A stretch of 63,670 nucleotides of DNA, counting the filler, from Collodictyon triciliatum (taxonomy: Eukaryota): the NCBI GenBank assembly GCA_043381765.1. It is 4 parts of 4 records of this genome, joined end to end, with 100 filler letters (N's around TTAATTAATTAA, not from the genome) between each part and the next. Parts side by side here need not be neighbours in the genome. Positions count along the whole stretch, not along the records: positions 15,875 to 31,994 come from JBHJMP010001341.1; 3 more parts are not named here. One strand, 5' to 3'. The notes under the pieces were generated by a model that did not search any database, was not told the origin of the DNA, and saw only the letters and a list, made by a program, of their open reading frames with translations. Each line of letters starts with the position of its first letter. Positions within the stretch are counted from its first letter, which is position 1. Both the position numbers and the translations under genes were made by a program. Positions 16,930 to 42,900 of the stretch are shown one piece after another.

Positions 16930-17477
16930 ATATATATTATGATAATTTAATAAAAACCTCGACCTCGGTAAGCCTCACAACGTTTCTGGACAAGATGTCT
17001 ACAGCTTGCGCGATCTTTTGAAACCGTCGTATTTCCGTTTTGGCTGCATGTCACAACAAGCTTACATTTTGAAGGAATCAGAACGATAGCACAAAACCGG
17101 TTCGATCGTGTCCGGCTCACGGGCCCTCTTTGATGCGAGCTGAGGGCCACTCAAAGCGATATTCTAATAGATCGATAGGCGTAGAAGAGAGTATATGAAT
17201 ATATACCAAATAATAATCGTAAGAAGCATACCTGGGGTTATTGAGACATAAAAGTCCACATTTCTGAACAAAGATAGAAGCGTCTTCTAAACCTGCCAAA
17301 GGTTCCAGCCCGAATGGAAAGATAACAAAACTACATACCGTTCAGAGTGTGTGGTTCTATATAAAAATGATAATTCACTCCATAAGGATGATATTCCTAG
17401 ACCCTTCGATTCATGATTCAGTAGCTTGCTAAACTAAATAAAAGCCTAAACTAAAGGACAGCTGAAAAGCATCGGCG

Positions 17478-19958
17478 ATGGCCATGGGCGATCAAGAGAT
17501 GATAAACCAAAATATTAATGAGGAGGAAGAGCGATCGCCCCAGACACCCGGGTCGTTGAGGATGTTGGATGAATTCCGCGAGTGGACTTCGAAAAGAACA
17601 TATGCTTTTGTCCACGACGATGACGCACGGATTTTTGATACCAAGATGTCTATTGCTGAAAAAGCCTTTGGGACTAGATGGCGTAAGATTCTGACAAACA
17701 TATATCAGCCTCCGTTTTCAAACATGATACTGATTCTATGCGGGTTGAATGTTTTCTTTTGGTTTGCATCACTGTTATTCCCTGAGGAAGATTATTTGTT
17801 GTTTGTAAGTGCGATATGTTGGTTCGGAATTGTGCATTACTTACTTTTCATTCAGCTGTTTCACCTTGATGTTATCCTATTCACGGCCACATGCTTCGAA
17901 AACAATTTCTTGGTGGTCAACCTAATGGTCCAAATGTATTCTATTGGAAGTCTCACACAGTGGGACGCGCGTGCTGGTCACTGTCTTGTGTTTCTTTTCT
18001 TTTCCTACATCAATCTGATATTTATGGATGCCTTTCCGTTCAGTTTCTCCAAGTTCGAACGCGGATTTTCAAATTATGTTCAGCTAAAAAAGGACGAGGA
18101 TGCATCCAACCATCTCGTTTCTTCATCATCATGTTCAACACATACAAACCAGACTGATTGTTCCATCTCAAAAAATCAACATAAGCTGATAAGAGATACA
18201 AAAGTAGTTTGGATGCCAGTGGTCTCTGCTCCTGATTGTGGGGATGCATCTGGGTCGGTCCACCAATCAGTTGACTTGGAATCCATCAGAAGGAGAGTTT
18301 TGTCGATATTCCCAAGAATTGGATTTACAAAGCAATTGCCTAACTGCACCAAAATATATGTTCAGAACATAAAATTCCATTCACACCTGTCGATTTTTCT
18401 GATCATAGTTTGCCAAATAATTCTCTATCATTTTGTGCAAAGAAAGATGATACCAGAAATGAAGGTATCTATTTTACACATCGGCATATTCAGTTGGACT
18501 GATGAAGAAATGTGCCGAATAAGTTGCATTAATATTCTCTATTTTTCATCGAAAAGACTCTATCGATCAGTATTCAAACCGATGGGTATGTCAACCACAG
18601 TGCAGCGTTGCTTTAGAATTCCATTAGTCAAGCAATGGATAGAAATTCTAGAATACGTCCGAGTAATGATTGTACAGCATAAGGATATATCTGAAAATTG
18701 CGCCACCGACCATCGTAGTTTTACCAAAAGTTCCTATGTGAAAAAAGCCGAGTCAATAATTTTTCAGAAGAGCGAAATTAAGAGGAGCAGTTTTCCGTTA
18801 TCCGACCACGGACCGACCGAGTTCTACGAAATCAGTGGGACAGCTGATGGAGCGGATATGGAGAGTCAAAATACTTCTAACAAAGACTGCACAGAGATTT
18901 CACCAGAAAAAGACATGTCTGGAATCGTATTCGATAGAGCTATCGTGCGGAATTTCAACCAAGATAGTCGCCTTCTGGTGTGCATTAGCACTGACCATCG
19001 AGGGAAATATCTCGATTCCAATAAGACTTTTGGGGAGGTCATGTTTGGCAAGCGCGTTTGGACCAACCTCCATAGAATTGTTGTTCGGTTAGGTCATGTT
19101 ACCATTCCATTTTGGTTCATCGGGTTATTTTTCTTTTATTACCTTGTATCGCATCAACATATAGACTTGGAGAAGTATCTGATTATATTTGGTACATTGA
19201 CTGTCATGAGACTATTTTGTGTGATTGTTCTCTTTCCCATCGCCTGTGTTGTTAATTGTGTGTACACCATTGAGTCGTCATTTCTGTTTTTCAATACAAT
19301 CCTTCTCCTGGGATTAGGAATATCAGTTTATGGATGGACGAGCCCGATTTCTTACTTGGGGTTAGTCGCTTACATCCTCTCATGTAGTGTGGGCGTATTC
19401 ATAGATGCTTACCCGGTTTCTTTCAAACCTGCGTCCGTTGTATTGGACGGAGTTTTACACAGGTGGAGAGAAAAGGGTATTCAACTAACAACTGAAGATA
19501 AAGTCATTCTTAATATTGCCAACACATTGATTTATGATGCGTATGGAGAAAACAAGGGCTCGAGAGCACTACGAAATCATGTCAGAGAATTAGCATCGAG
19601 CTGCACAAAAGATAAAAGCTTTTTCAAAAGGCTTTTGGCAAGGAGCTTTGTCGAAAGAAAATTAGTTTCTAATACAATCATAACTGTTTTGTGGATAGGC
19701 GTCACCTGTGTGTATATCTATCTTTGCTTACTGTCTGCAAAAGAGTATGAAAACCAAGATTTAATCGAAGTTTCCACACCGGTTGGAACCTGGTCAAATA
19801 TCGGACTGATGAAAACCATTCTGTTAAACATGGGAATAATCTTTACCAAAAGGGCTGTGTTGATAACGGTGTATCCGCTCAAGACAGCAGCGTTTGACTC
19901 CCCATACCTGAGGATTCCGCTGGTTCCATCTGTTGTGCGACTGCAGCAGAATATTTGA
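17478..19958 (+). CDS. Intronless multi-pass membrane protein (826 aa) with internal duplication
   Basis: Long ORF with two similar halves (DTKMSIAEKAFGTRW / DSNKTFGEVMFGKRVW; IFMDAFPFSF / VFIDAYPVSF; FRIPL / LRIPL). Confidence 0.8.
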   Translation: MAMGDQEMINQNINEEEERSPQTPGSLRMLDEFREWTSKRTYAFVHDDDARIFDTKMSIAEKAFGTRWRKILTNIYQPPFSNMILILCGLNVFFWFASLLFPEEDYLLFVSAICWFGIVHYLLFIQLFHLDVILFTATCFENNFLVVNLMVQMYSIGSLTQWDARAGHCLVFLFFSYINLIFMDAFPFSFSKFERGFSNYVQLKKDEDASNHLVSSSSCSTHTNQTDCSISKNQHKLIRDTKVVWMPVVSAPDCGDASGSVHQSVDLESIRRRVLSIFPRIGFTKQLPNCTKIYVQNIKFHSHLSIFLIIVCQIILYHFVQRKMIPEMKVSILHIGIFSWTDEEMCRISCINILYFSSKRLYRSVFKPMGMSTTVQRCFRIPLVKQWIEILEYVRVMIVQHKDISENCATDHRSFTKSSYVKKAESIIFQKSEIKRSSFPLSDHGPTEFYEISGTADGADMESQNTSNKDCTEISPEKDMSGIVFDRAIVRNFNQDSRLLVCISTDHRGKYLDSNKTFGEVMFGKRVWTNLHRIVVRLGHVTIPFWFIGLFFFYYLVSHQHIDLEKYLIIFGTLTVMRLFCVIVLFPIACVVNCVYTIESSFLFFNTILLLGLGISVYGWTSPISYLGLVAYILSCSVGVFIDAYPVSFKPASVVLDGVLHRWREKGIQLTTEDKVILNIANTLIYDAYGENKGSRALRNHVRELASSCTKDKSFFKRLLARSFVERKLVSNTIITVLWIGVTCVYIYLCLLSAKEYENQDLIEVSTPVGTWSNIGLMKTILLNMGIIFTKRAVLITVYPLKTAAFDSPYLRIPLVPSVVRLQQNI

Positions 19959-20724
19959 GGTACACAAAGGCCACCAGCCCCTCAAAGTCTTGAAGATTCC
20001 ATAGAGCTGCACTCTTCCCTCAAATATGTTAATAGACTGATGCGTGCAGTACCCCCCAACACGCTCCCCACGCTACGTGCACGTGTAATGCATGTGCTTA
20101 TGATGTGCGCCATTACTTGCTTCATGGGTACAAAATACGCCACCTAAAATTGATCTAGTATTATCATCTCTATAGTCACTCAATATAAGCAACCACTTCA
20201 TAGAGACCAAAATAGCGACAAAAAAAAAAGTTCCTTGAGTCGCTCTCAGAAACCGTTCTTTTTGTACAAGAAAATCAAATAAATAAATAAAAATAGCATT
20301 GTTATGTAACACGAACTTGAGTGACCTAATTGCCACCGTTTTTTTTTTTAGATATAAAAAAATCGTCGAAATATAACTACCAACCATATTCAACCAATGA
20401 ATCAATCAATGAATCAATCAATCAATCAATCAATCAACCAACTCATCTCTTTCCACCCTTCAATAACATGATTGCAATGAAGCTCTATATCAGTAAGCCC
20501 CCTCCAAATAAGTCGCCCACCATCAAAACGCGTTTCCCATGTTTCTGGCCTTCGAAATACCACAGCATCATTCCAGCATACGAATCCACCACACAATTAA
20601 AAGCCGGCTGCGCTCACAGAGCTTCAAAAATCGCAGCCTTCTATAACATCCGTGGCCTTTTCTAACATCATATGCACCTTGCCGCAAGTCACAAGCAAAT
20701 AAAAAAAAGGAAAAGGAGAAAATG

Positions 20725-20876
20725 AAAAAAAGAAAAAAGAAAAAAGAAAAAAGAAAAAAGAAAAAAGAAAAAAGAAAAAAGAAAAAAGAAAAAAGAAAAA
20801 AGAAAAAAGAAAAAAGAAAAAAAATCAAAAAAACAAAAAAACAGAAGAAAACAAATCAGAGATGAAAAGAGAAAAA

Positions 20877-20951
<75 letters not shown>

Positions 20952-20952
20952 A
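20725..20952. repeat. Adjacent (GAAAAAA)n and (AAAT)n microsatellites
   Basis: Direct tandem repeats; edges approximate. Confidence 0.9.
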
Positions 20953-21880
20953 AAGAAGAAAGAAAATAAAGGAAAGACAACCCGGCTTCCAAAGCTTACG
21001 TGCACCCCTTGTCCCTCTCACGCCTTGCACGAACCAAGATAAGCCCGACAGGAAGCAAAGCACAGACACAGAAGCAGCGCACGCGAAAGTGCATCGCCCC
21101 CGCCCCGGCCTTTGCTTCGGGTGGGTTTCCGGCTGCGTCTCACACAGTGCGTCCGCACGAACCTTCAGCCACACACTCGCCCAGGATGTGGCTTTGGGCT
21201 TTGTCGAGACTGCGACCGTCGAGCTCGCCGGAAAACCCGCCCACGCGGCTGTTGATGCGTTCTCCCGTTTTTCGGTTGAGGACCTCCGCCGCCTCCCTTC
21301 TGCCCCGTCGTCTTGCGGCTCCCAACTGCACAAGGCTTGTTCATGCCTTTATTTTATTTATTTTATTTTATCGTATTATTTTATTTTATTTTTTGTTATT
21401 TTCTAATGATATAACAGCCAAGAGTAATTCTCGAGCCCGTCGCCAATTTTGTTTCTAGTGGTGTTGTCCTAATCAGCCTGAATGTCATGATTTTTATCTT
21501 GTTGATCAAATGCTCTTATTTCCACTCTCGACTTCTGCACACCCTTGCGTTTTTTCTTTTCTTTTTCTTTTTCTTTTGTATTTTGGAGAAGCATTAGATG
21601 GGTTTTTTTTTCTTGTCTTCCCTACTGTGCTTTTTACATATAAACTTATCTCAAATATTCCGTCCTTTTTGTTTCTGCCCATATACCGTATCAATTCTCT
21701 ACGCGCAGCAGGTTTTCTCTTTTCTTTGCCTCGCAGGCGCTTAATTCACTTTTTTTTTAGACTATACGACCTCTTTCACGTGGCATAATCGGCGCATTTG
21801 ATCTCGCAGTGTGTTATTTTTCACTTTGGCTAAAGCTAAAGCTTTTTTATTTTTGTTACATGTAGACTTGCGACAATGAT

Positions 21881-23690
21881 ATGGATCCTGAATCCACAAA
21901 AAAGAAGCGTGTTCGTGTCCGTCACCATCGCAACCGGAAATCGCGCTCCGAGTATTCTCGCAACGCCACTGCATCTGACACGGCCCATTTTGAGGAGGAC
22001 GAACAAATGACTCCAGAATCCGACATTGCCGTGCATGACGCTGAGACGAATGAGCTTGAACTGGATAACCTTGACGAGTTTCCACCTCTGCAGTCTTCTC
22101 ACTCGAATGTAAGTGCTTTCCTTATGATATTGACACCGAAAATTACAATATCAAACAAACCCCAGTGCCATATGGCTGCTGTACCAGAAGAACGGATATG
22201 GTTTCTGAGGCCTTTCCACGTTTCATTCTTGACCGAAAGTGGATTTTGATTCAACCATTAGTTGGAAACGCAGTCTCAAGCAAGCCAAGTTCCGACAGTT
22301 GAATGCGATAGCATCTGGAGCGTATGTATTCAATAAATTCCTGTGTAATGTCGCTGGGCTTCACAGCTCTATGTGTTTGAGTTTTTTTTCTTTTACAACT
22401 CAAGGTCTTAAGCTGCCTTTTGCTACGATGACCACTCGATAGATTTATTTGTACTTTGGGATATTGCTTTATGTAAATCTGTTTCAGTTTAACAAATAAT
22501 ATTGCATATTAACAAACACCATCATACAGCCTGCACACATGCCGGCTTCTGTAGCTTCGACACCAGTGACCGCCGTGCCGAAGGACAAATGCAACAGCCA
22601 ATACGACTTGCCCAGGATGGAAAGCGCTCCAGCATTGAAGACAGCCTTTGTATGTTAACTATTCCTGTACTAGAAGGAAAATGAAAAAGTTGAACGAACG
22701 CTTGACCTTGACCTTTACCGATAGCCATTCGTTCACTCATTTTCTTTCTTTTTTTTTTAAAAAAGACAAAAGTGGATAAAAGATGCAAATTAAATCCTTC
22801 CAAATGGTCATATCTAACGAGCAATCATTAATGTATGAAGCCATAATTTGACTGCTGTTTTTCTTCTTCTTTCATCTTCTTATCAGGTTGAAAAGGTGAC
22901 CAAGAAAAATGTCTTCACGCCCGTATCACCTGCGGAATTCTTGTTCAAGTCAGTAGTTTTATCGCTACGTGCAGCATGTCATGAATGATTCTTTCTTTCA
23001 TTTTAAAAAAGTATTACCAGCTTCACCGAAGAATACATATTCGAACGTAGCACCTTGCCAATATTTATTTTGTGTATTTGTAGACTCTTCCCCATTGGAG
23101 ACAATTACCATGGAAAAGATACCTCCTCAAGTGAGCTCAAACGTGAGAATGAGCTATCGGCCAAATGTGCTCGCTTCTTACGCACGATACAAGTAAGGTG
23201 CAATCTTACTGTTCTGCAACCCGTTTGGAAGTGTGTAAACATGTCCTGGGTGAGCTTTCTTTCATCTTTTTGACGGTTTGCTGGAAACAGTGGATCTTTT
23301 TGTGATTCTTTAAGCATTATTTTCCAATTTTTCTTCTTCTCTCTCTTATGCATCATAATAAGCGGAACATTTCGTCAATTTGATATTTCCTTTCACTTCA
23401 GACAAAGGAACATAAGGAAAAAGAACAAAATAGTGTCTCCTTGTCATCGATGAAAAAATCGATGTTAAAAAGCCTTCGGAAAAGTTCGGTCAAGTAAGCG
23501 TAGTGGCTTATCTTTTCATAAAAACAACAAAGATGCATATAAACGAAAGTAAAATGCGATTAAGATGTATGTTAGTGATAAAAGCATGATGACCACTGAT
23601 TTCTGATGAATAAAATTTCCTCTTGATGCATGCCCGTTTTTTTTTTTTTTTTTTTTTATCACAGGGTCTCGACCGCTAAACAGTCTGTAA
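21881..23690 (+). CDS. Hypothetical protein, 7 exons, largely low-complexity with basic NLS-like start
   Basis: Phase-consistent GT-AG chain: MDPESTKKKRVRVRHHRNRK../LETQSQASQV../PAHMPASV../VEKVTKKNVFTPVSPAEFLFK/LFPIGDNY..CARFLRTIQ/TKEHKEK../RSRPLNSL*. An alternative last donor gives a stop at 23704. Confidence 0.65.
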
Positions 23691-23760
23691 AGACTGTTGC
23701 CTAAACAAAGTCCAATCGTCTGCTTGCAAAGAACTTCGTCGCCCCGTCACACGCTAACAA

Positions 23761-26700
23761 ATGATTAATCCAACCGTTGACGAAGTTCGAAAACTAGTTG
23801 CAGAGCATCCTGACTGCAATCTAGTTCCAATTTACAAGGTAATATCATAGTATTTTCTATAGACCATATGAAATCATGGCGGAGATAACTCCATTCGAAA
23901 TTCAACCACCGCTTTCGAAGTTAGATGAAACTCATATCCATTCACATCTCTTCTTCCCATATTGCTTTCAGGAACTTGCCGCCGACCTTGAGACACCTGT
24001 TTCAGCATTTTTGAAGGTAAACAATCCGTGTATAAGGATAAATTCCAGCTTCGCTTCAAGCGAAGACTTGAGATTACATTCCAGCCCATTTCACTTCTTT
24101 TTCTTCCCTCATTTACTTTTTTCGTTTTTTCTTGTTCTCTTTTTTACACCTCCAAATGGGAACTATTTTTTTGATAGGCCAGGACAGGAACCCATTCTTT
24201 CTTATTTGAGAGCGTGGAAAAAGGAGAAAAACTTGGACGTTATTCTTTCATCGGAACATCTCCCATAAAGGTATCTGAGTTACGCTGGTGCTGCTGACAG
24301 ATTTTCAATGAAAGACAAGTTAATCATCCAGACATTCTTACACTGCGCTACATCCAGACTTATGAACACATTCACTATTAGATTATCAAGTCTGGTCCAG
24401 GAACGACATTTGAAGGAGATCCTCTGGTCCCGGTAGAAGAAGGTTTGTACGTCGTATAATATAAGGCATATAACGGATAAAAGAACGGACATACCTTGAT
24501 GCATAATGCACCCATTTTGAAAGCAGAGTTAACATGAAGGCATAAGAATATGGTGAAAATACGACTTCTTTCCGTCATGAATAAACAATCGCTTTATACT
24601 TATTTTTATCACCTTCAATAATGAATAGAATTGAAGGCTTACAAACCCGTCCCCATCCCCAACTTGCCGCCATTTCTCGGAGGTGCCATCGGATATGTGA
24701 CCTATGACTCCATGTACCACTTCGAACCATCCGTCAAGGTGCTCATATCGGAATGTCAACTGAAAATGAACTGTTGTATTGCTTTCTCACAGATGTGTCC
24801 TAATTCTAATAATCTTACCAAAAACGCAGCTGGTAAACTTGTTGTAACAGACTTATAATACCTTTACATTATAACTAGCCACCCGCCAAGGATTCCATGA
24901 AGGTTCCCGAGTCTATCTTTTTGATTTGCGACTCTTTGCTTGCATTCGACCATGTTCGCCATACAATCTTGGTCAGTTTCTTTTGTTTTCTTTCAAGGCA
25001 TTATTCACGATAGAAATTTAATTTAAACTCGGCAGAAAACATCTTCCCCACCAAAGCCAGTCATTTTCTTCCAGTTTCCTAGAATTATCTTTTTGTTCCT
25101 AGCTTTTGTCAATGAGGAACATGTATATTTAAAATTATACATATCTAAGGTCGTTGCACAATGCCGAGTGACGGAAGATATTGAAACTGCATACGCCGAA
25201 GCTGTTGAGAAAATAACCACACTTGTCGACAGGTTAGATGATCCTTATAACCACATATATTTCTATGGGAAGATAATGAACTCAACCCACAACAATTTCT
25301 CCAAAAGAGTGTACATCATACGTAAATACTCCTGCAACCGAAAACCATCAAATACACCCAACTAGACTGGAATCTCCAATCACGCCGATGCCCGCAGACT
25401 CTATAGGCCCCGAAGTTGGCCAGGGTGAACCTGTATCCAACATTGGGGAAGAAGGGTACAAAGAAATTGTTTCAAAATTCAAGGAGCACATCTACGCTGG
25501 TAACATCATCCAGGCTGTTCCGTCGCACAGACTGTCATATCCCACGACGCTGCATCCTTTTAACATATACAGGTTTCCATAGCCTCTGAATTCATTCGCA
25601 CTTCTTCTGTGATTCTAGAGAATTCGTCTCTTGCGCTATTCATCGCCTTCGCTTGAAACATATTCAATGTGCATTGATATGTTGACAAATATCGTCGTTT
25701 TTTTTTAATGCGGACTACTAGGCAACTTCGTATCGTGAATCCCTCCCCCTACATGTTCTTTATGGACCTCGACGGTTTCCAGATCATTGGTGCTTCGCCC
25801 GAACTATTGGTAATATGGTGCATTCCTGCCCTTAATCCGTCGGTAGATACATCATCCAGTAGATAAAAAAGAGGAGGTAGTCCTTAGCCATGATTTATCA
25901 CAGGTCAAGGTAGATAAAGGCGTCATTACGACTCACCCCATAGCTGGTACAAGAAAAAGAGGGAAAACACCAGAGGAAGACCTGGTTGATGACCAATTTA
26001 TTCTTTTTGTCTTTGTCTTTCTCTTTCTCTTTCTCTTTCTCTTTCTCTTTCTCTTTCTCTTTCTCTTTCTCTTTCTCTTTCTCTTTCTCTTTCTCTTTCT
26101 CTTTCTCTTTCTCTTTCTCTTCTTTTTCTTTTAACATTTACCTAGTTTTTTTTTTTTTTAACATTTAGCCTACTGGCTTTTTTTAAAAAAAATTTACATT
26201 GGAAATGCAGGCCTTGGAAAAGGACCTTCTCAGCGACGAAAAAGAGCTTGCAGAGCACATCATGCTCGTCGATCTTGGGCGCAACGATGTTGGCAGAATC
26301 TCGAAACCTGGGACTGTGAGTATTTTGATAAGTGCCGAATATACATCTTCCGTGAATTTTTTTTTAATTTGTTCTTCGTCTTAATGAATCTCAATTCTAT
26401 GGTCAAGGAAAAATATTACTTGCATTCTTATCATTCACTCATATTAAGGTGCGTGTTGACTCGATGATGCACATCGAAAAGTATTCTCATGTCATGCACA
26501 TTGTTTCAAACGTCTCTGGTCAGGTACAAAAAAGAAAAAGGGGAGAGGAGCTTATCTGTATCATAAATTTAATTGCCATCAACAAGAATCCAGTCTAGTC
26601 GATCTTATGCTTTGTTTTTTCTTTTGCTTTTATACGAGCGAGCCTTAAACACATTCTCCATTCAGCTGCGCGAGGACAGGTCGGTATACGACGCATTCCG

Positions 26701-27745
26701 CGCAATATTCCCTGCAGGAACGGTATGAAGCTGTAAAAAAAAAAAAAAAGAAGTAAAAGACGACGACATATTGCTGCGCGAATCATTTCATAGTCTTTCT
26801 GTCTATATGATTGGCTTCAACATATGTATAGGACTTTATTCAAATAACCCTACTATTGCGATCAATAGGTATCGGGAGCTCCAAAGATTCGCGCCATGCA
26901 GCTTATTGCTGAGCATGAAAAAGAGCGGCGAGGTATATATGCAGGTAGTGCTATAAACCATGATGGTTGGTTGAATTTTCTCACTTTTATTCGCCCAAGG
27001 CGGACGAGATGGGCTCTTTTAAGTCGTTTTCTAAATGGATACCGTCCCTCCTGGTTATACCCCAGGTTCTGTGGGCTACATCGGGTTCAACGGAACAATG
27101 GACACATGTATCGCTATTCGCACAATGGTATACAAAGACCACACAATATACTTCCAAGTAAGCATATCATCATCGAATTATAATGAAAATTTCGATATTC
27201 CCAACGATTTCATCCTCTTTCGCCATTCTTTCATTCGTTTTCTTTCACTCTTTTCTAATCCCATCCGTCCTTACTATTGATCTCTATCAAAAATTAAAAT
27301 ATGTCCACCATTTTAGGCCGGCGCCGGAATCGTATTCGACTCAGTTCCTGAAAGCGAATATCTGGAAACGATGACAAAGATGCGCGCTTCTCTCAGGTTG
27401 GTGCAGTGATGACAGATATCCATTTTATGTATCACAGCAAACGACAATCATATTCGTTGAGTTCACTGTCACACTATTCCCTCGCATGAATTTCTCAACA
27501 ACAACAACAAAACAAAAACACTCTAGAGCTGTTCAACAGGCTGAATCTATCTACTTCCGCAAAGCCGGAGCTAGCTCAACAAAGAAAATCCCCTCTGTTG
27601 TATGTCATAGCTACTAATATAATATTTCAACCTATGAAGCAATACTGCCGATGGCTGTGTCTTAATCCCCATGTTCCTTACCTCTTTTTTTTTTTTTTTT
27701 AAGGACACCGACCCACGTGGGTTCTGGAACAAATCGCAGAACTAA
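23761..27745 (+). CDS. trpE: Anthranilate synthase component I (alpha), about 18 exons
   Basis: Spliced motifs [133 protein letters not shown]. The last exon is uncertain: TAA 27743-27745, or a fusion to trpG (see findings). Confidence 0.95.
26017..26121. repeat. (TTTCTC)n microsatellite in trpE intron
   Basis: Direct tandem repeat; edges approximate. Confidence 0.9.
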
Positions 27746-27934
27746 GTGACTTGAAAGGAATTAACTGTCATCGAGTAATAATTAGATTGCCTCGCTCTTA
27801 GATATACAATTATGAAACCTATACACAAAGATTCATATGTTCAAATCCTATTCAGACAATATTCTCATATATCTTGATATTATCATTTCACTCGCCTTTC
27901 AATAACTGAACTCTTTCAAAAAAAAAAAAAAAGG

Positions 27935-29427
27935 ATGTCGCGCTTGTTGTTAATTGACAATTACGACAGCTTCACATATAACATCTACCAGTACCTGTGT
28001 GAATTGGGCGCTGATGTTCAAGTATGCCTGACAACCCCCGTCGCTTTACACATTTTCATTTCCCTTCAAAATGATCAACAACATAAAAATTACCCAAAAA
28101 TATTCTTTCATACCACACTTTTGACAGTTCTCTATCCCTGCTTTTCGAAGAAGGCAAATATTGATCCAGCCACTGACATAATTTCATCCACCTTGCTCCC
28201 GCTGAGATATATTTTGCATTTGTTTTCCCAGTATTTACTTTACGTATATAGGTCCACCGAAATGACAAAATCACTCTTGAAGAATGTATTGCCATCAACC
28301 CCGACCACATAGTGATTTCACCCGGCCCTGGCCACCCTCGAGATGCGCACGTGTCTATTGTATGGCTAATTTCACAGAACACGCCTCCGTACCGTGTCAC
28401 ATGAGAAGGGCTTAAGATGTTTCTTATTCTATTATGTACCTCATTAATGGATGTTAATACTAGGATGTTATCAAACATTTTGCTGGGAAAGTTCCACTTT
28501 TAGGTAAAAAGAAAACTCACTCTCTTTCCATCACTGGACAAACATCATCCTGCGATGAATAATAATAATACCGATTTAACAAATTAATTTAATTGAAAAT
28601 CTTCGATTCATTTTTAACCACATTTGCTGGATAAAAGAAATAAAGGTTATTATATTATGAATGAGATGATATAACCCAAGGCTGTATCCTTAATCAAATA
28701 GGTGTATGTCTCGGTCATCAAGCCATCTTCGAAGTTTATGGCGGAACAGTTGCGAGCGCCGGAGAAATCATGCATGGCAAGCAGTCTCTCGTATATCACG
28801 ATGGAAAAGGTATACAACACCGACCCATGAACTTTAGCTTCTGATACATGTCCTGTACACCTTCCAGAACGAAAACGTCTAATTTTACATCTTTCGATTT
28901 GAAATGTCTTGTGCAATAGGTGTATATTCAGAAATTCCGAGCCCTTTCGCAGCCATCCGCTACCACTCGCTTGCAGGCGTCCGTGAGACAATATCATCTG
29001 AATTGCAAGTCACATCCCAGACAGCCAATGGGATTATTATGGGCGTACGGCACAAGAAATACACAGGTGATTATCAAATCACACATATTTCCTTGATTGC
29101 AAATTTTTTAAATCGAGTATCCACCCTATTGCTCTGTCCGAACTTGCTGACACCAAATATCTCTCATATCATAGTCGAGGGTGTTCAGTATCATCCCGAA
29201 TCAATCAAATCAGATCACGGAAAAAAGGTACGTTACCTACAGGTCTCTTGCTTATCTTGTGGTTCTGGGTTAATCACATTCAGAGTTTGAAATCACACCC
29301 ATTTTAACTTGTGTTCCTCTATTCTCCTTTCTTTTTTCAATTTGTTAATTGCTAATTATTTTTTTTAAAATAAAACCAGCTATTCCAGAATTTTCTCAAC
29401 ACCAAGGGTGGTGAATGGAATCAATAA
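27935..29427 (+). CDS. trpG: Anthranilate synthase component II (glutamine amidotransferase), 7 exons
   Basis: [39 protein letters not shown] (catalytic Cys), [17 protein letters not shown] (His/Glu); ends [15 protein letters not shown] (TAA 29425-29427). Confidence 0.95.
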
Positions 29428-31994
29428 AGCAGTACACTAGAAAGCTTGCAGAGGGTAACTCTCTCACTTACGAGGAGGCTTACAACGCCATCTACGGTGA
29501 GAGAATTTCACTTGACAAGATTTGCTTTCTTGCATTCCTTAAGTCCGGTTAAGGTTACTAAATGACTATTGATATACCCTATCGAAACACGTTTACTCAT
29601 ACGTCTATTTATACAATCATAATCACCCCGCGATTGACATGTGGGTAGAAATCATGTCTGGAAAGGTATGCAGTTTAACAATACCTTCTTTTTTTTTTTG
29701 TTCATTACATCAAATCAGAAATAAATATCTTATAATGACCGATCATATATCCGGTTGAACCTTTTTTTTTTGATGGCCGTTTATCGAAACAGAGCTCTCC
29801 CGTTCTGATTGCCTCCTTTTTGACCGCGCTGCACATGCATGGAGAAAATGCCGAGGTGATTGCTGCCAGCGCTGCGGCTATGCGAGACCATGCCAGTTTG
29901 GTAAATGGTATCATTTTTGTCATCCCAGAGTCATCACAGTATTTCCAATTTCTTTTTTCTTTTCGTTCTTTTATACTATTATGTGGATAATTTTTTGCTG
30001 TTCCCTACTATTATCCTCACACCCAACAAATGATGCCAAGACATTACTCATCCATCACCGCAGGTGGCGAATGCATTGATATTGTGGGCACCGGAGGGGA
30101 CTGCATAGATACTTTCAACGCCTCTACGGCCGCTGCTTTTGTAATTGCTGGTGCTGGGGGTATGAGTCATATACAAGTACACGCAAAGTATCATATTGAC
30201 GAGTAGAAAGGTCGACACATAACACTACTACTATACCAGCAGTCGAAGGTGCTGATTACCTCTTTTATTGATAGGACGAATGGCAAAGCATGGGAATCGG
30301 GCTGCGTCGTCATTGTGTGGAAGTGCAGATCTGTTAGAAGCAGGTTTGATACACCACAACTTGCAAAATATACTACTCTTTTCATAATTTTGTTTTAGTT
30401 TATCCGATTCCAGTAAAACTAGAATGTTAATATCGGGTTTATCACAATCCAGCCGGTGCTAATCTGGAGTTGGCACCCAATCAAGCTGAATTCGTCCTGC
30501 AAAACTGTGGATTTGTGTTTTTGTTTGCACCGCGATTTCATCCCTCCATGAAAACTGTTGCAGGTTTTTTTTTATTTTCCCTAGAAATACCATTTAGGGC
30601 ATAAAGCTACGTTAATAGTATCTCCTGACACACACACACACTCACTATATCTTTTAATTTGTTGTATTTTTACCCTGTGTGCTCTCTAAATATTCAAAAT
30701 ATTGGGATTTTCTGTCTTGGAAACGCCTCTTCCTTCAGCCATAAGAAAGGAGCTCGGCATTCGCACCGTCTTTAACTTCCTCGGCCCCCTGGTAACTGTC
30801 TCTATCATCTCTTTGAACAATGCCACTTCCAACTCCTCCACATAATTATTCCTTTCTCAACCTCTACGTTCGTTTGTGCAAATGACTACTTCATATCGAT
30901 TGTTTGTGATGAAAATTTTGACTTTTTATTGTTTTCGCTCAATAATGAATTCTTTAGACAAATCCGTCGAATCCAAAGTACATACTTGCGGGTGTTAGCA
31001 AGAAGGAAGTGTGCCCGATGTTTGCTGAGAGCTTCAAGAGAGCTGTACGGTTCCAATACCCCATTGTTTTTGAATCAGCTTCATTTGCACAGCCTGACAA
31101 CTTTACTTCACAGATTTTCATTTTTATTCAATTAATCAACTGCACAATTTGGTTCTCGCAGGGAATGAAACGCGCTATGATTGTCCACGCAGAAAACGGT
31201 ATGGATGAAATTAGCCCATGCGGCGTGACACATGCTTGGCTACTGGATAACGGGGAGGTGTGTCATAAATATAGCTAAAATAAGTAAATAAATAAATAAA
31301 AAAAAATTGTGTGGTAGAGTACTCTTACTTTTACCTATTTTGATTGAGACATATCCTCACCCCGTAATATTTCCGACTTAGATTACAAACTTTGAAATCC
31401 GTCCTTCTGACTTTGGGCTTGACGAGCACACCTTGCGTATGCACACATCAAACCCTTACTATGCGGCAATTAATAATTAGGGTTCTGAAGACTCAAGCTT
31501 TATACGCATTATAGAATCTGTTCAAGGTGGAAGGCCACACCACAATGTCGGATTGCTTCACAAGTTTTTAGACGGAGAACAAGGGCCCATCACGGATTTT
31601 GTCGTAAATTTTTTCTGATCCATTACTTCAAGCCTAACCAATATTCCGACTATTACTTATTTATTTACATAGTTTTTTTCAACCAAGGCATGTATGTACA
31701 ACTACATTTTCCCCCTTTCCTTTCAATCAAACTAAAATCAGTAATCGAACATCAAGCTCATCAACGCCGCAGCCGCTTGCTTCGTTGCTGGTATGTTCAT
31801 ATAAACATATATTTTGAAATCAAAGGCAGAATGCCGCTTATCTAAGCAGCTTCTTTTAATTTCCTTTGTAGCTGCAGGATTTTCCGACTTGATCTTTATT
31901 TTGTCTCTAAAGTTGTATTGTTATTATTGTTTTTTTTTTAAAAAAAAAAAAAACACCACCCCAACTGATACACATAGGCCTTGCAACCGACCTT
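29415..31994 (+). CDS. trpD: Anthranilate phosphoribosyltransferase, at least 13 exons, 3' truncated at contig end
   Basis: [33 protein letters not shown]/..DIVGTGGD..TFNAST../AKHGNRAASSLCGSADLLEA/..FLFAPRFHPSMK/IRKELGIRTVFNFLGPL/TNP../NGMDEIS../LINAAAACFVAG/LATDL. Confidence 0.95.
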
Positions 31995-32094
31995 NNNNNN
32001 NNNNNNNNNNNNNNNNNNNNNNNNNNNNNNNNNNNNNNTTAATTAATTAANNNNNNNNNNNNNNNNNNNNNNNNNNNNNNNNNNNNNNNNNNNN
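31995..32094. other. Artificial contig linker
   Basis: N44-TTAATTAATTAA-N44. Confidence 0.97.
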
Positions 32095-32803
32095 CTTTCT
32101 TTTTCTTTCTTTTTCTTTCTTTTTCTTTCTTTTTCTTTCTTTTTCTTTCTTTTCTTTCTTTTCTTTCTTTTCTTTCTTTTCTTTCTTTTCTTTCTTTTCT
32201 TTCTTTTTCTTCAATAAATTATTTTCTTTTTTTCTTCTAAGTGGCATTTTAAAACCTTGGTAATATCTGCTCGGTATTTATTTATCTCATTGCACTCCTC
32301 CATGGAATAATTACACTACACCCACCTGCTCATTTCCATATAGATTGACATAGGTGCTAAACTTACAAAAATTATAGAAACGAATAGCTGAATCTATTTG
32401 GCAAATAATGTACAGTATCTGTGTTCGCTTTGCTCTGGGAGCAATATGAAGCGCGCTGTATGTACTGTTGGCGACACATCCTGACCGATGCGCACCGTTA
32501 GCTGGTGGGTATTCTAATATAGCATATATTATCAATCAAAAAATTGTTGAAATAGATGAAACGTAGAAAATTCCGACAAATATCGAGCTTGTTCAAGCTG
32601 AAGTGCGGGAAAGTATGGCTTCACCACAAGCAATCAAATAAAGTCGATTGAAATTGATCTATATTATCTATCCAAACTATGGCATACCCGTTGACATTCA
32701 CTCACGAACCATTGTGTCAAAATTACCGCACCGATTGCTTCATGAACTGAAAGAGCTGAACAACTCATTTTTGTTTGGTAGCTTCTCTTCGTCGCAAGGA
32801 CAT

Positions 32804-33745
32804 ATGCACCCACCTGACCATGAAAAAGAATGGAACGCTCAACTCCAAAAATTGCAAGAGACAGTCCCGCCTCTTGGAGATGGAGAATCACCATCAAACA
32901 TTCTTCCCAGTCCTCAGATTCGGTTGAGTTCGTCAAATAGTCGTGAATCTATATCATTCCCCTGGGGAGTATCTGTTCATCCTAAAAATGGGGCAGTCTA
33001 TGTGACAGATGAAGACTTGAAGAAGGTGATGATATTTGACCGATTCCTCAATTTTGTTTCTTCTCATTCCACTGATTTGACGGTGCCTAATCCTCGCCAT
33101 GGGCCTCGGGGTATTGCAATATCGACAAGTGGCTTGATTGCTTTGGTTGATTGCGAAGCACACAGCGTAAATCTGTACACGGATACATTTGTGCTCAGCC
33201 GTCGCATTGGAGGTCAAAAAGGAAGCAAACCCTATCAATTCAATCGACCTTATTCCGTCACCTTTGATGCCGAAGAAAATCTTTACGTTGCTGACTCCGG
33301 GAATAGGCGAGTCCAAAAGTTCGACAGAAAAGGGCAGTTTATTCAGACGATTGGTGCAGATAGCGAAGAAGGAGGGCTCATCAAAAGCCTTGTGAATGGC
33401 GTCATAGTGACAGGCGATTCGAAGGTTCTTGTCTTGTGTGCAGGTTCTGACATGGTGCGAGTCTTTAATACGAAGGGAGTCTTTGAGAAGTACATAAAAA
33501 TTGGTCTGCGTGCGAGTATTGGAGGCTGGTCGAGTATCTTCAACGCATCAAAAGGGCTGTTTGGAATCTGTGAGAACACTGCTGGGCTCATTTCTTTTTA
33601 CAACTATGAAGGTGCTTTGGTTTATGAGATGCACGTTGAAGGTTGTTTGGGTGCTTGTTTTGGTCAAGGAAAGAACTTTTACGCCACAAGTTTATCAGAT
33701 AAGTCCATCCGAATGTACCCAATATCTGCGGAATTGACATATTAA
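32804..33745 (+). CDS. NHL-repeat beta-propeller protein (start uncertain; may have upstream exons)
   Basis: Repeats FPWGVSVHPKNGAVYVTD, GPRGIAISTSGLIALVD, FNRPYSVTFDAEENLYVADSGNRRVQKFD. The ORF is open from 32648 and the first ATG is at 32804. Confidence 0.85.
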   Translation: MHPPDHEKEWNAQLQKLQETVPPLGDGESPSNILPSPQIRLSSSNSRESISFPWGVSVHPKNGAVYVTDEDLKKVMIFDRFLNFVSSHSTDLTVPNPRHGPRGIAISTSGLIALVDCEAHSVNLYTDTFVLSRRIGGQKGSKPYQFNRPYSVTFDAEENLYVADSGNRRVQKFDRKGQFIQTIGADSEEGGLIKSLVNGVIVTGDSKVLVLCAGSDMVRVFNTKGVFEKYIKIGLRASIGGWSSIFNASKGLFGICENTAGLISFYNYEGALVYEMHVEGCLGACFGQGKNFYATSLSDKSIRMYPISAELTY

Positions 33746-36968: not shown

Positions 36969-39900
36969 TTATTTATACGCTGGATGTTTTGACAGGGCGA
37001 CATCGGCAATGGCTCTGAGCAAATCCCTATCGTGGGCGGATGAGTGGTCCCTATGCTGGAGTTCTATGCATCCAACGGGAATCAGCTCCGTAAGCCGGTG
37101 TCTGGTTGAAGATGAGCAGGAAAGAAACATAAGCAGCTCATAGGTAACCCAATCTACGTAGCGCTCAAAGAAAGCATCTGCCAATGTGGTGTATTTGTTC
37201 ACGTATTGAGAAATGCCATTGAGTTTGAAGCCAAGCCTTTGGGTCGTGTCTATGGTTTCTGACCAAAAGGTGATGGAGCTTTCCATGATGCCTCTGGCTT
37301 CTAACCCTTCACAGATTCTAAGCGATAACGACCGGAAGATATGCTCGGCCGCATACCCAGTGTCCAGGGTGAGCATTTTCAGTATTTCCGTCTGCTCCCT
37401 CCATTCTGAAAATATCTTACTGCCCTTTTCGACGGCCCGGAGGACGATAGCCTTCATGTCCTCAACACCCGGTAGATACTTTGCGTAAAAATCTGGCTTC
37501 AGCAAAACAAGAGCGTTCAAGTTGTTTTGACGGCTACCCTCGAATATGTTATCCAGATAGACATGTCTCCAAAGATGATGAAAAAATGGCTTAGCGCAGT
37601 ACTCCTGAGGGTAGCAACCCCCTTGATGGACTTGTTCTGCTTCATTTGTAACATCTATGGTGTTCATGTCTCTTGTTAAATGATGGATAATAATAGCGTG
37701 CTTTGGTGACTGATGACGGCGGTTCTCATATTGCATCTGGGCATATAAAAAAGCAAAGTAGTTCAATCGATTCACATCGCAGCAACCATTCGTAAAAGAT
37801 GCAACCAAATATGACTCACTCTCTACACTGAAAAAGCGAGCTAGAGAATCCGTCAGCTGTCTTTCGGTCGATATTTGGTTCAGATTTAGATAGAATACGT
37901 CTTCTAGATCCATTTCACACCGTAAAGTTGCTTCAACATCCCCAACTCTACTGAAATCAGCGTAAGTCCATACAGATATATGGAGGCCGATGGGGAAACT
38001 GGAGATTCTGGAATCACTCCAACCATTTTTCTTTGCATATTTGATTACATCGAAAAGATTGGTATGACATTGTTCATCCATATACTCCTTGCGAATATTT
38101 AGCCCACATATTTCCTATTAAATAATTGGGAGGATTTAACATTAAAAAAATCTAACCAGGCCAAGCTTTGTAATTGTAAATAATCAAAAATATGTTTTAC
38201 ATTTCTTTTATGGATATGAAATTTTTATGGATATGCTTTTAGTCACATTGCTGTATTCAGTTGTCATTATCCACTCAGGTTTTAACATCCATATTAGATA
38301 ACGAAAGGTTTCTTTAACGAGGTCGCTAACAATTTTTGAACCAGATGTATGACTGGCTCTTAATAATGCCGAAGCTATGAGAGATTCATGGTAAGCAGCA
38401 AATGCATCACAGTACGTTTTTTGCTGTCTTGGTTTTTCCCAAGACTTTTCTAATGCCTCACCTAGTATTTCCTGTGATTTTTATTATAATATTATTGAAT
38501 TCAGTAAATTATTTACTTTTTATCTGAAATTCCCAATATGAAAGCATATTATCAAAGATTTTTGAAATAAACCTTTATATTTTGTACAGTCGTTTTGTAG
38601 AGTCTATCGTCCAAAATATCATCGATTGTCAAATGTTGCTTTTCAAAACGACTTAGCAGTGTACTATGAATTCCCCAAGGTGTTAAACCATAGGCCTCCT
38701 CTGTTGAAACGATCATCATACATTTAAAATTAGGATGAACCGAGTATATGTCATCACCATAAATTGGAGAAGATATATGACAAAACGTCTTATCTCCAGT
38801 TTGTACGTATTTCTAAATATTAATATATGATATTAGTAATGAAATATCAGAAATCATTTGTTTAGATTTTTTTATAATTTAATTTAAAGCTTTGATGGTC
38901 TTTGATAATAAAAAAAATTGCATTTCTTCAAACCTGGCTGAACATTTCGGAGAGAAGTTCATAGATACGATTATATCCCACCATGACCATAAAAAGACCA
39001 TGTTCCATGCAATAGCGAACCTTATTTAGCAACTTACAAATATTATCTTCTAGATAATCTAGGTAATCAGTGCTGAATATTATGATCACTTCATGATAGT
39101 TGATCATTTCTACATCTAGCAGATATGAAAAGGCGAAGTTGTTTTCCGTGATAATCATCAAGTGACGCGATTTGGAATCAGATAAATTTAATGATATTAA
39201 TTCAAGAGCAGAATTTCGAGGGATTAGAGGGACCCCTAATCTAGAGCGAAAAAGTTTGATTTTTTCCCCTAAAGCCTCCTTTGTGAAACCATTCATGTTT
39301 CTGGAAAGAGCTTGCATTAAAGTTATTGAAAAGTCTATTCTTTGCCGAGTACTTATCCATTCTATGAAACCGTAAAAATCATGCATTCCTATGGGTCAAA
39401 TCAGAATTTACTTAACCTCAAAAATTTGTAAATTTTCATCCAAAAATAAAAAATTGTAATACATAAATGGGTCTCCATAGAAATCGTCACGAATATTTAC
39501 CGTAAAATTTTTCTTTTCTTCTATCCAACCGTGTCAGCAGCGTTTGTTTATACCCAAAATTGCTTGCAGGTGGTTGATGTCCTTGGAAAATGTCATGCAA
39601 TATATTGGTAATCGTTCTAATTACCTTATACCTAATTTTTGGGTCTTTTGGCATCAAATAATGGATATTTCTACTATCAACTTGCTTAAAATTATCCAGT
39701 TTCATATAAAGAGGCTCTATAATATTCATGGCTGTCATTTCCATGTCATTTATAGATGGGTGCTCGTGATTCAACATAAGCTATTGGAATAATGTGAAAG
39801 TTGAGAAATTTGCAAAAAAAAAAAAATGTCTAATTAAAAAAACATTTACATTAAAACGATCAAAACCGTTTACAATCATAAAATACCATTCGATTAGTGT

Positions 39901-42900
39901 TTGAGGCATTAAGTCTACTATGAGAGAGAATTATGACAGAAATTTTTGATTTCTCGAGAAGTCGGTCAAGTATTTCAAAGGGTGCGTGAGGGCTTTGTCT
40001 GGCCAAGCTGGCATCTTCCATCAAAAGAACGTACTGTAGATAGTTTTTTCCATGGTCGTCATTTCCTTTTCGAATTCTATCTTTTTCATTTTGAATTTTG
40101 ATTTGACTGTTCAATTCTTTTTCCTCACGTAAAGCACCATTATACGCCTTTTCTATATCTGAATTTTAAAGATGAAACCGTTAAAATTATCAACAACCCA
40201 AATATTTGATAGCTTCATAAAAATGGGAAAATGGCCATATAATGTATGATATAAAAATTAAAAAAAAACCCCCAGGTCTTGTAAAAACAGAACACTGAAT
40301 ACACTTAAAGATGAGTTTGGGGAAGAAAGAGAAAAGTTTTCCTCTATTTTCCGACGAAAATGTTCTCTTCAAAATACCCATGGCCAATGATTTTGATGTT
40401 CCTGAGCCCCCAACAACCTAAAGTAATTTGCTGTTTATAAAATATATACCCCATGAATTTTTGATATAAAATGTGCTCAATAATTTACCAAGGCCGGCAT
40501 TCTGTTGAATATAGAAACTGTCATCAAGAAGATATTCTCAGACAAGGTCTCGTTTAATAACGTAGTTTTATCTCCCATATCCATGCATTTCAAAAATAAA
40601 CTCATTTCTAGTTTCATTGTATTTTGAAATCGTTTGTATTTCATAAAAAATACTTTCTTTATCCCATCAAAGGATTTTATCCCAAAAAGCTTGTTGGAAA
40701 TATTTACTTCGTCATATAAAACGTAATTTAAATATCTTTCTCTTTGATTTTCCCCTCTGAAAGTGCTTGATTTTGATTCCAGATTGCTATATATTGTATT
40801 ATATAGTCAACGATTAATGATAGAAAAAACATTAAAATATCTTTGTAGTTTATAAATTTTTATCTAAATACTCCTCATGAGATTGCTCAATAATATAAAT
40901 TTACCTAAGTTTTAAGTAATAGCAACAGAATAATGCAATTCCCATCGATATTTCTCGAGAAGATAGCTCTTCATCTGGAAAGAAAGGACAGTTGGAATCG
41001 TCTTCTACTACTTTTGTCAGATTGCACACTTGGCATTCCTTTTTTAAATTAAATTTTTCATTCAGGGATTCTTGTCGATAAAATTCGAGTCTTTGAAAAG
41101 ATATTCTGTAAAACCATCTCTCCAAATCAATACATCTTTTTATATCCCGTAAACTAACACACGATGGTTCACCAAGCTCCCTCCTCATAAAGTGTTGAGA
41201 TCTGGCTATGAGTTCGCAAAAAAGGTTACTCTTTTTAACATCCATTTGGCTTTTGACGCTTAAAAATCCTGTTTCAATATAAATGGAGATATCCTATTGT
41301 CGTATTATATATTTTAACATCACCTTCTTAGATATCTATTGTGTTTTTGTAATAAAAACCCGTCATTTTTCTAATTTATACGATAAATTTTTATTCAATA
41401 ATTACCTCTTTATTAACATCATTAATCATCGAGTTAATATAGAAAACTTCTTCGTTCGATTCGATGTAACCAAAGTTCCATAGGTGCAAGCCAATTGATG
41501 GAGGTATTTCACGTATTGGATGTGAAAATAAACAAGATTTTCTATTAATATGACTTTCTTGAGAATTGACGTCACTTGGAACGATAAATGATGTGCCGGT
41601 AATCGATTCTTCAAGTTCATATTTACTGGAGCGATACACTCCAATAAATGAAAGATTTTTCGGAAGTATTGATCCATCGCATGTATGATCACAAAAACAC
41701 TCTGAATGTCAATTTTTTTAGAAATGGAATTAGTAATAAACTAGGATATTTTTTTTTCAAAATAATCTTACCTTTTAAGAAATCGATGTGTTTAGAAGTC
41801 CTTATTTCGTCAAAAAATATGACGGCAGGCATTTCAGGACTTTTATCCGCGAGTTCTGTGCAAAAGTCAAAGTTATTTTTAAAATTATGAATTAGTAGAT
41901 TTTTCAGTACAAAGTACCTTTTCCCTCATTGATTGTGTTTCTAATTTCAGATTCCTTTGTTTCATCTATAATAATTAATTATTAAACACACTGTTTTAAG
42001 TATGAATTTATTTCGAAATACTATTAAAATTTTGAATAATTGGAGTCGAATGAAGGGAATAAAATTATTAAAAAAAAACCATGAACGAGGAGCTTAACAT
42101 AATTTCCGTTCAGTATTTGGCATACGAAATCTATCAATTTTGTTTTTCCACAACCAGTCTCTCCCTTTTAATAAAATAAAAATTAACTATATTAACAAAA
42201 AAACATTTTGATATAGTTTAAATTGTAAATATTTACCGTGATAATAAGTGGTAGTCGATTTTTGATGCGATTATAAATGTGTATTATTTTGATTATGCAA
42301 TCTTTTGTAATTGTTAGACCGACTATTTGGGCTCCTCTTTCAATAATATCCTTTCTCTCACCGATAATTATACTTAATATTTCAAAAAGTGTATCAGAAA
42401 TATTTTTTTGTCTATGCTCCATACCCCAAATATCAGGGAAACGGTTATTAATTCTCTTTGATAGGTAGAGGATGTCATCATAGTGACGTGGAATTTTTCC
42501 ATCAGGACTGCAACTTGGGTGCTTTTGATCAGTCATCTTTTTGAACAGAGGTTCGATTTCACAATATACAGTAAACGGCGCTTTTTCGGGGGTAAATAAC
42601 AAAGGTGGGTGCAAAAAATCATTCCAAAAGCGATTCACTTCCAAACTCTCTACATCTAACCTCGCTGAAGAAAATGCGTTTGCATAATCCATAAGTATTC
42701 GAATAATAAACCGCCTTTTAAGGCAGGTATGTGGTATGGCTTTCAGTCCTGATGGAGATAAAACTGGGCTCTCTTCGAAAATGCGAAACTGGTTGAAGCA
42801 AAATTTCACAAAACTGATCCAAGCGTATCTTTCTGCCTGGCAGTAGTAAGAAAGAGTTTCTTCACATCTAAAGAAAATAATTTGGATTATTGTCAATATT

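Follow-up and report, generated by a model that had tools for sequence, protein, structure and literature searches.

A trpE-trpG-trpD locus with bacterial gene order and a 13-nt stop/start overlap in an intron-rich stretch of the Collodictyon triciliatum genome

The locus described here belongs to Collodictyon triciliatum (assembly GCA_043381765.1), a freshwater protist of the Diphyllatea type, and is a unit of three tryptophan-synthesis genes arranged head to tail. It lies in a stretch of 63,670 nt, filler included, in which parts of four records of this genome are joined end to end and which we call the window; all coordinates count along the window, and positions 15,875 to 31,994 come from record JBHJMP010001341.1. 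The window is intron-rich eukaryotic sequence of about 39% GC, in which trpE, trpG and trpD(-C) follow one another on one strand in the order of the bacterial trp operon. Gene models were built from reading frames, GT..AG sites and the joints in RNA contigs; for trpE, which spans ~4 kb of genome, base-level modelling was confined to the last exons. The features of the locus are as follows.

23761-27745, + strand: trpE, anthranilate synthase component I; ATG at 23761 (context TAA CAA ATG), stop TAA at 27743-27745, many short exons
27317-27396, 27527-27599 and 27704-27745, + strand: trpE tail exons, the frame open through to the TAA at 27743-27745 with the observed splices
27746-27934, + strand: trpE-trpG spacer, made up of exon 27746-27774 (29 nt), intron 27775-27933 (159 nt, GT..AG) and 1 nt (27934)
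27935-29427, + strand: trpG, glutamine amidotransferase, anthranilate synthase component II; 7-exon model, 196 aa
27935-28021, 28252-28359, 28464-28503, 28702-28809, 28920-29066, 29175-29227 and 29380-29427, + strand: trpG exons
29404-29411, + strand: G-rich stretch AAGGGTGG in the TrpG Lys-Gly-Gly codons, 3 nt 5' of the trpD ATG (from junctions compared side by side)
29412-29414, + strand: TGA closing the trpD frame directly 5' of the trpD ATG (window sequence)
29415-29427, + strand: 13-nt overlap from the trpD ATG (29415-29417) to the trpG TAA (29425-29427) (sequence and identical RNA contig)
29423-29428, + strand: AATAAA spanning the trpG stop, a candidate poly(A) signal (window sequence)
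29415-31994, + strand: trpD, anthranilate phosphoribosyltransferase; 13 exons, 307 aa up to the N gap
29415-29496, 29649-29665, 29793-29907, 30064-30159, 30275-30343, 30453-30563 and 30739-30791, + strand: trpD exons 1 to 7
30958-31044, 31162-31257, 31382-31436, 31515-31603, 31757-31790 and 31978-31994, + strand: trpD exons 8 to 13
31995-32094, no strand: gap N44-TTAATTAATTAA-N44, hiding the remainder of trpD and presumably trpC (window sequence)

A tblastn ladder of Gonapodya TrpE extends over 23963-27394, and Pfam Chorismate_bind matches the trpE exon at 25415-25573. In mature RNA, 30 nt separate the trpE stop from the trpG ATG, with the acceptor of the spacer intron 1 nt 5' of that ATG. Over 191-192 aa, the TrpG model shares 67-69% identity with the stand-alone TrpG proteins P0019, P0011 and P0003; its C-terminus coincides with the ends of these proteins, which finish in ...GGRW or ...GGTWS, and Pfam GATase (PF00117) matches a trpG exon at 28922-29065. 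The product is thus predicted to be the full-length class-I glutamine amidotransferase of anthranilate synthase. All 22 modelled introns (trpG, trpD and the trpE tail) are GT..AG and measure 78-230 nt; an introner test found no repeat family shared among these 22 introns, only homopolymer matches.

A search with two trpD exons brought up one long protein, from Diphylleia rotans (P0121, EukProt EP00002; 612 aa, labelled 'complete'), in which TrpD is fused to TrpC; the next-best representative to P0121 in 1.84 billion proteins is 51% identical. Our TrpD model is identical to P0121 at 248 of 307 positions (81%) without gaps, which for this one gene agrees with a collodictyonid (Diphyllatea, CRuMs) origin, including 16 of 27 in exon 1, and P0121 begins at a Met homologous to ATG 29415, without a TrpG part. 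A 17-nt micro-exon at 29649-29665 (part of ...EIMSGK), which has no RNA contig cover, was modelled because the gap-free alignment to P0121 requires it. Pfam PF02885 (Glycos_trans_3N) and PF00591 (Glycos_transf_3) match single trpD exons, the latter at 25.2 bits, just below the 27-bit cut-off because the exon is short. TrpD is predicted to comprise the N-terminal helical bundle and the a/b domain, starting from the annotated Met. Homology comparison found no TrpC match anywhere in the window; by analogy with Diphylleia, trpD probably continues into a TrpC domain beyond the N gap.

The last trpG exon reads ...AAG GGT GGT GAA TGG AAT CAA TAA, with the stop at 29425-29427. The trpD ATG at 29415-29417 stands in the -1 (+2) frame relative to trpG and is followed by GAA TCA ATA AAG, so that its TG is also the TG of the TrpG Trp codon at 29416-29418. 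The two open reading frames (ORFs) are co-directional with overlapping stop and start, as in a coupled gene pair, and the trpD AUG begins 10 nt before the trpG stop, the closeness of start to stop that is looked for in termination-reinitiation. The initial annotation had placed the stop, the start and the TGA at exactly these positions and had judged both frames, and both protein ends, to look functional; the homology of the TrpG end and of the TrpD start bears this out.

RNA evidence came from assembled contigs of public sequencing runs, laid on the window and having depths of 2.1-5. All 15 listed RNA joints are GT..AG. Five of the six trpG introns are seen spliced, the exception being 28504-28701, and 7 of the 12 trpD introns appear as joints in runs X2 and/or X3, the others having been placed from frame and homology. 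The trpG-trpD junction is covered by X2 record 6 (355 nt, depth 2.6), which comprises 28731-28807, 28918-29064, (29173-29225) and 29378-29455, with one other letter at 29023 and no gaps. Over 29378-29455 it shows 0 other letters and 0 gaps against the DNA, and it is spliced at the three trpG introns on its 5' side; RNA from trpG exons 4-6 therefore runs across the stop to 28 nt past it, ending at 29455. This confirms that the overlap is present in RNA just as it stands in the DNA.

The same contig bears on whether the two genes form a single ORF that has been obscured. The initial annotation had raised a missing G and a spliced 41-nt intron at 29411-29451, and had suggested that RNA over the junction be searched for an indel or a small intron; neither appears in X2 record 6. 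Its intron arithmetic was right, as GT at 29411-29412 and AG at 29450-29451 would restore one frame, and the window is draft sequence interrupted by N gaps. With a single low-depth contig (2.6) over the site, a minor spliced form is possible. Against this, the contig retains the 41 nt and is identical to the DNA with 0 gaps, although X2 may not be independent of the assembly; the 41 nt encode residues conserved in Diphylleia, which an intron would delete, and they are shorter than every one of the modelled introns, as had been remarked. We regard an artefact or a dead gene, whether through a one-base assembly error in a true fusion or through this small intron, as very improbable.

It is comparably improbable that TrpG and TrpD are joined by a programmed -1 frameshift or other recoding within 29415-29424, as the initial annotation had also proposed. 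Such recoding would yield a TrpG-TrpD of the E. coli type, which is a fused protein. The frames do differ by -1, a reading ...GGEW-ESIK... would be open, and in-frame TrpG-TrpD(-C) fusions are known in other proteins (P0229, P0237, P0227, P0234). The junction itself argues otherwise: no single TrpG-TrpD frame is present, there being a stop in each frame and RNA identical to DNA; no XXXYYYZ slippery heptamer occurs in 29380-29500; and the 3' side forms no stable fold (minimum free energy -22.6 kcal/mol, z = -0.35, with 77 of 200 shuffles folding equally well in a tool without pseudoknots). TrpD also has a complete start of its own, with a Met conserved in Diphylleia, where the ORF begins at this residue, and in the nearest prokaryotic loci listed.

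Contigs also connect trpE to trpG. X3 record 10 (261 nt) joins trpE segments 27137-27157, 27317-27396 and 27527-27599, also takes in 27704-27774 by record arithmetic, and closes with a loose end at 27775 whose 15 letters equal the start of trpG; X2 record 4 carries the joint 27774->27934, in which the intron of the trpE-trpG spacer is spliced. The coding exons of trpE and the start of trpG are thus shown on one spliced RNA contig in two runs from different studies. Depth bins contain no X2 or X3 contig inside intron 27775-27933 or intron 29228-29379, and therefore no separate 5' end is apparent there. At the far end of trpD, a loose end of X2 at 31791 (183 letters beyond) continues into 31978-31994 and onward.

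Some other contigs of these runs have less regular structures. X2 record 5 is unspliced from trpG exon 3 into intron 28504-28701 (28464-28634), either as intron retention or as pre-mRNA. One X2 contig opens with 28 letters foreign to the window and then enters trpD exon 7 from 30745, beside the AG at 30744-45; these 28 nt have 0 matches in the window at up to 3 mismatches and may derive from an alternative exon, from a chimera or from a leader sequence. Run X4 (possibly DNA) gives only scattered cover, with none over 29380-29470, and its pieces below 90% identity come from other organisms. Runs X5-X11 contain 6-8% of words and give no evidence of habitat.

To place the junction among prokaryotic trp loci, we used a metagenome scan with TrpG exon 5 (at least 36 loci) and the best 80 of at least 600 stretches from genome contigs. 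The best metagenome match to exon 5 is 63% identical, and no close eukaryotic relative is among the matches listed. Automatic calls on the 116 loci examined, again among the matches listed, place trpD next to trpG in 69; a trpD start is callable within 60 nt in 54 of these 69, and 25 of the 54 overlap. The commonest bacterial overlap is 4 nt, found at 19 of those 25 junctions (19/54 of all called). Among the matches listed, the genome nearest to one stand-alone TrpG (82%) is L037, a metagenome-assembled genome of Dehalococcoidia, which is 68% identical to the window in TrpG and 50% in TrpD. L001 is a dense metagenome operon of bacterial type (TrpRS, trpE, a CMD-family gene, trpG, trpD, trpC...) that is 63% identical in TrpG, 53% in TrpD and identical at 238 of 370 positions in the TrpE exons.

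The geometry of the window junction recurs in both loci. At L037 the junction reads ...GGA CGA TGG TGA, where CGA supplies the A and the Trp codon the TG of the trpD ATG, and the overlap is 7 nt; at L001 it reads ...AAT TGG ACG..., the start being a TTG that lies on the corresponding Trp codon, with an overlap of 19 nt and AAGGA 7 nt upstream. The trpD start shares its TG with the Trp codon of the TrpG tail in each case (window gaATGGaa, L037 cgATGGtga, L001 aaTTGGac), and overlaps of 7, 13 and 19 nt belong to one frame class. All three 'GGxW'-group loci with adjacent trpD, among the matches listed, have this geometry. Fungal TrpG-TrpC fusions have ...GGTW... where the window TrpG meets trpD. 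A G-rich stretch lies 3-8 nt upstream of the trpD start in all three, and where the window has AAGGGTGG, L037 and L001 carry the Shine-Dalgarno-like GGAGGG or AAGGA. From this alignment, AAGGGTGG may act, or may formerly have acted, as a ribosome-binding site. The ribosome of a eukaryotic host lacks the anti-Shine-Dalgarno sequence.

We performed phylogenetic analyses of the three proteins using a bacterial sample picked by TrpG similarity, with plants, stramenopiles and amoebozoans left out. In the TrpE tree (40 rows by 497 columns, careful search, bootstrap not fully settled), fungi form a group with support of 100/95, the window joins them at 98/92 and L001 joins both at 100/99, all nested, at 100/100, in a clade with genomes labelled Chloroflexota and metagenome loci that carry no label; a quick tree of 96 rows has the same topology. 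The TrpG tree (123 rows, quick) agrees with this more weakly, placing the window with L001 and the fungal domains (Shimodaira-Hasegawa-like approximate likelihood ratio test 83) beside a Dehalococcoidia group (94), with nothing starred. The TrpD tree (190 rows, quick) supports only the grouping of the window with Diphylleia (99) and of both with P0185 (96). The unit looks old because its genes are intron-dense and its TrpE groups with fungal TrpE. On these trees, the trp unit is not a recent transfer and has its ancestry in common with the fungal TRP genes.

Operon-like chains of Trp domains also occur in other records: E-G-C-F in the chytrid gene model P0134 (Synchytrium), E(part)-G-C-F-D in the eukaryote-like record P0185 and E-G-D-C-F in P0234, with TrpE directly before TrpG in P0134 and P0185. 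These chains may be true fusions or merged neighbour genes, and either way they show trp clustering in other eukaryote-like records.

We tentatively favour, with a probability of roughly 0.45, the reading that the locus is a co-transcribed operon relic in which TrpD is translated separately by termination-coupled reinitiation on a polycistronic RNA. An operon-like nuclear unit trpE-trpG-trpD(-trpC) would have retained the bacterial gene order and the prokaryotic start/stop geometry and would later have gained GT..AG introns throughout (22 modelled). It would be transcribed through and spliced as a multi-cistron RNA, presumably with all three ORFs on one molecule. A ribosome ending TrpG at TAA 29425 would then restart 10 nt upstream at AUG 29415, and TrpG itself would likewise be reached by a restart 30 nt beyond the trpE stop. 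Coupled reinitiation is favoured by the closeness of the cistrons (-13 and +30 nt) and by contigs that run on without a break. Leaky scanning to the trpD ATG is unlikely because 13 ATGs occur in the 578 nt before it (8.9 +/- 2.8 in shuffles), and the short, AUG-poor upstream ORF of green-algal polycistrons is not present, trpG having 196 codons and these 13 ATGs per 578 nt.

Several observations weigh against this reading. Eukaryotic ribosomes reinitiate poorly after long ORFs, and TrpG has 196 codons and trpE is long; a stop codon followed by many exon junctions normally invites nonsense-mediated decay. The UGGGA motif, motif 1 of the termination upstream ribosome-binding site (TURBS), which is complementary to 18S rRNA helix 26 and lies some tens of nt before the restart, is absent from the 120 nt of mature RNA before either the trpG or the trpD restart, the nearest copy being 126 nt upstream. 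No X2 or X3 contig covers 29456-30076 or bridges 29455 to the next trpD exons, a gap in cover that is not evidence of a transcript end, and contigs of such low depth (2.1-5) can chain overlapping transcripts. An AATAAA overlies the trpG stop, and 27 nt past this hexamer the X2 contig comes to an end. In the TrpD tree neither L001 nor L037 is nearest to the window, and deep nodes are below 80. Diphylleia adds a further point: searches of protein sets found no TrpG and no TrpE from D. rotans, although EukProt uses TransDecoder at default settings, which can report several ORFs per transcript. A TrpD-TrpC ORF without a TrpG or TrpE hints at a separate trpD-C mRNA in that species.

A rival explanation is that trpG and trpD are expressed from separate, overlapping mRNAs, which is quite plausible even if we would on balance bet against it. 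Here a trpD(-C) mRNA would have its own 5' end near ATG 29415, starting within ~35 nt of it, through a promoter in the last trpG intron or exon or through spliced-leader trans-splicing onto the acceptor at 29379/29380; trpG would be polyadenylated soon after its stop, and the 13-nt overlap would be an inherited layout without a translational role. The AATAAA at 29423-29428, which the initial annotation had pointed out over the trpG stop, and the end at 29455 of the sole RNA contig over the junction are in keeping with this. So are the position of ATG 29415 as the first ATG after the acceptor at 29380, the trpG ATG 1 nt after the acceptor at 27933, and the complete Diphylleia ORF. The contigs behind a second TrpD-TrpC protein, P0173 (621 aa), do not exceed 2037 nt, a monocistronic size, and cap-dependent initiation is the ordinary eukaryotic route.

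Other observations favour continuity. In X2 the exon 29380-29455 is joined unbroken to trpG exon 6, with no contig in intron 29228-29379, and the trpG start is likewise joined to trpE exons in X2 and X3. The acceptors lie 1 nt (trpG) and 35 nt (trpD) 5' of the ATGs, and only cis-joints were seen there; no spliced leader was found among the 11 of 18 loose ends listed, and the 28-nt end at 30745 is neither at a cistron start nor from the window. No report of spliced-leader trans-splicing in Diphyllatea was found in the literature passages searched. The AATAAA itself has a density of 1.4 per kb per strand in the window, and its exact form is not seen after 6 of 8 other ORF ends there, several of which may not be gene ends. 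An Rfam search of the window at gathering thresholds gave 0 matches.

Termination-coupled reinitiation on an operon-like unit has partial parallels elsewhere. Passages of PMC6728339 and PMC10666635 describe translational coupling by this route in bacteria and archaea. The window resembles the bacterial trpG-trpD junctions of L037 and L001 in its E-G-D(-C) order, single strand and separate ORFs; unlike a bacterial trp operon it is a nuclear locus with at least 22 spliceosomal introns, one of them in the trpE-trpG spacer, and its overlap is 13 nt rather than the commonest 4 nt. Horizontal transfer of a siderophore operon into yeasts, as described in part of bioRxiv 10.1101/399394, likewise placed a multi-gene unit of bacterial type in a eukaryotic nucleus and raises the same question of downstream-cistron translation. 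On that account the yeast genes arrived recently from clear enterobacterial donors and contain no introns, whereas the window genes are intron-dense and old-looking and keep a coding overlap. Excerpts of PMC11952965 report induced 80S-mediated reinitiation on yeast bicistrons, possible after a full-length ORF.

Polycistronic nuclear mRNAs are described for green algae in sections of PMC7896298 and PMC11291117, the former also naming tomato tomPRO1. Like these, the window would have a mature, spliced nuclear mRNA with more than one ORF of related function, if all three ORFs do share a molecule; according to the same sections, the algal upstream ORFs are small and leaky scanning is favoured, whereas those of the window are long, ATG-rich and overlapping. 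Viral termination-reinitiation, as presented in passages on calicivirus VP1/VP2 and influenza B M1/BM2 (PMC2793014, PMC3035654), has a stop and restart AUG a few nt apart and a downstream ORF in another frame, as here; unlike those systems, the window has no UGGGA-type motif within 120 nt upstream and concerns a cellular biosynthetic gene. Human mRNAs with overlapping ORFs are treated in portions of PMC3923131 and of the review PMC10275272. Fused Trp enzymes share domains and order with the locus, both the fungal TrpG-TrpC(-F) proteins (L006, L008, L009, L011, L013; P0134) and the G-D-C(-F) or E-G-D-C-F proteins (P0229, P0237, P0227, P0234), whereas in the window TrpG and TrpD lie in different frames and are not one polypeptide, and only the D-C fusion is known, from Diphylleia. 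In none of these parallels, as far as the cited passages describe them, is a coding overlap kept within a unit that is old and dense in introns. For Diphyllatea, nothing in print was found on nuclear genes that are polycistronic or trans-spliced, or on clustered trp genes, supplements not being covered.

A more far-reaching scenario, which we consider unlikely in its entirety, would join the phylogeny with the expression of the locus. An early eukaryote would have received an entire bacterial trp operon from a relative of the Chloroflexota before the split of Diphyllatea and fungi, and the Collodictyon locus would be the living relic of that operon. Its rearranged leftovers would then survive in fungi as the TRP genes, among them the TrpG-TrpC fusion with its ...GGTW... 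seam, and as the chytrid E-G adjacency, and Diphyllatea alone would keep the E-G-D-C order and the overlapping stop and start. Under this scenario the unit would be expressed as one spliced polycistronic mRNA, its later cistrons translated by termination-coupled reinitiation by the eukaryotic ribosome.

Operons taken up by eukaryotes are thought to fall apart rapidly into separate genes, and the small number of cases on record are young and lack introns; here, in the deep-branching CRuMs lineage, a bacterial-type order and a coding stop/start overlap have persisted while dozens of introns were gained. Should the RNA prove to be polycistronic, the locus would offer a natural system for studying downstream-cistron translation after long ORFs and escape from nonsense-mediated decay. 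Linked by phylogeny to the fungal TRP genes, it may also show an intermediate state that preceded the fused fungal Trp enzymes and may help to establish when bacteria made a large contribution to amino-acid synthesis in eukaryotes. In annotation, loci of this kind are apt to be mis-called or wrongly merged by gene callers.

Outside the trp unit, the window contains three gaps of identical layout, N44-TTAATTAATTAA-N44, at 15775-15874, 31995-32094 and 50879-50978, the second of which cuts trpD; the TTAATTAATTAA linker carries a stop in each of the six frames and suggests that contigs were joined. Long AT-rich ORFs of 300-634 aa succeed one another on the minus strand at 36969-49409; they occupy different frames, and slight overlaps occur between some of them, as between 46621-47523 and 47505-49409. 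Four of these ORFs were scanned against Pfam and gave no match; together the ORFs may represent a single giant gene or a mobile element. A 65% GC island at 58000-60200 (the rest of the window being 30-45% GC) has long open frames on both strands and stretches resembling dinucleotide or codon repeats. Two intron-free ORFs, a Roc-COR GTPase at 53802-56153 (783 aa) and an NHL-repeat protein at 32648-33745 (365 aa), contrast with the intron-dense trp genes and with other conserved genes, represented by ADH3-like exons at ~750-1680 and an axonemal dynein light chain-like exon at 4008-4295 on the minus strand. The latter and other flagellar-looking exons, read by eye, fit a flagellate.

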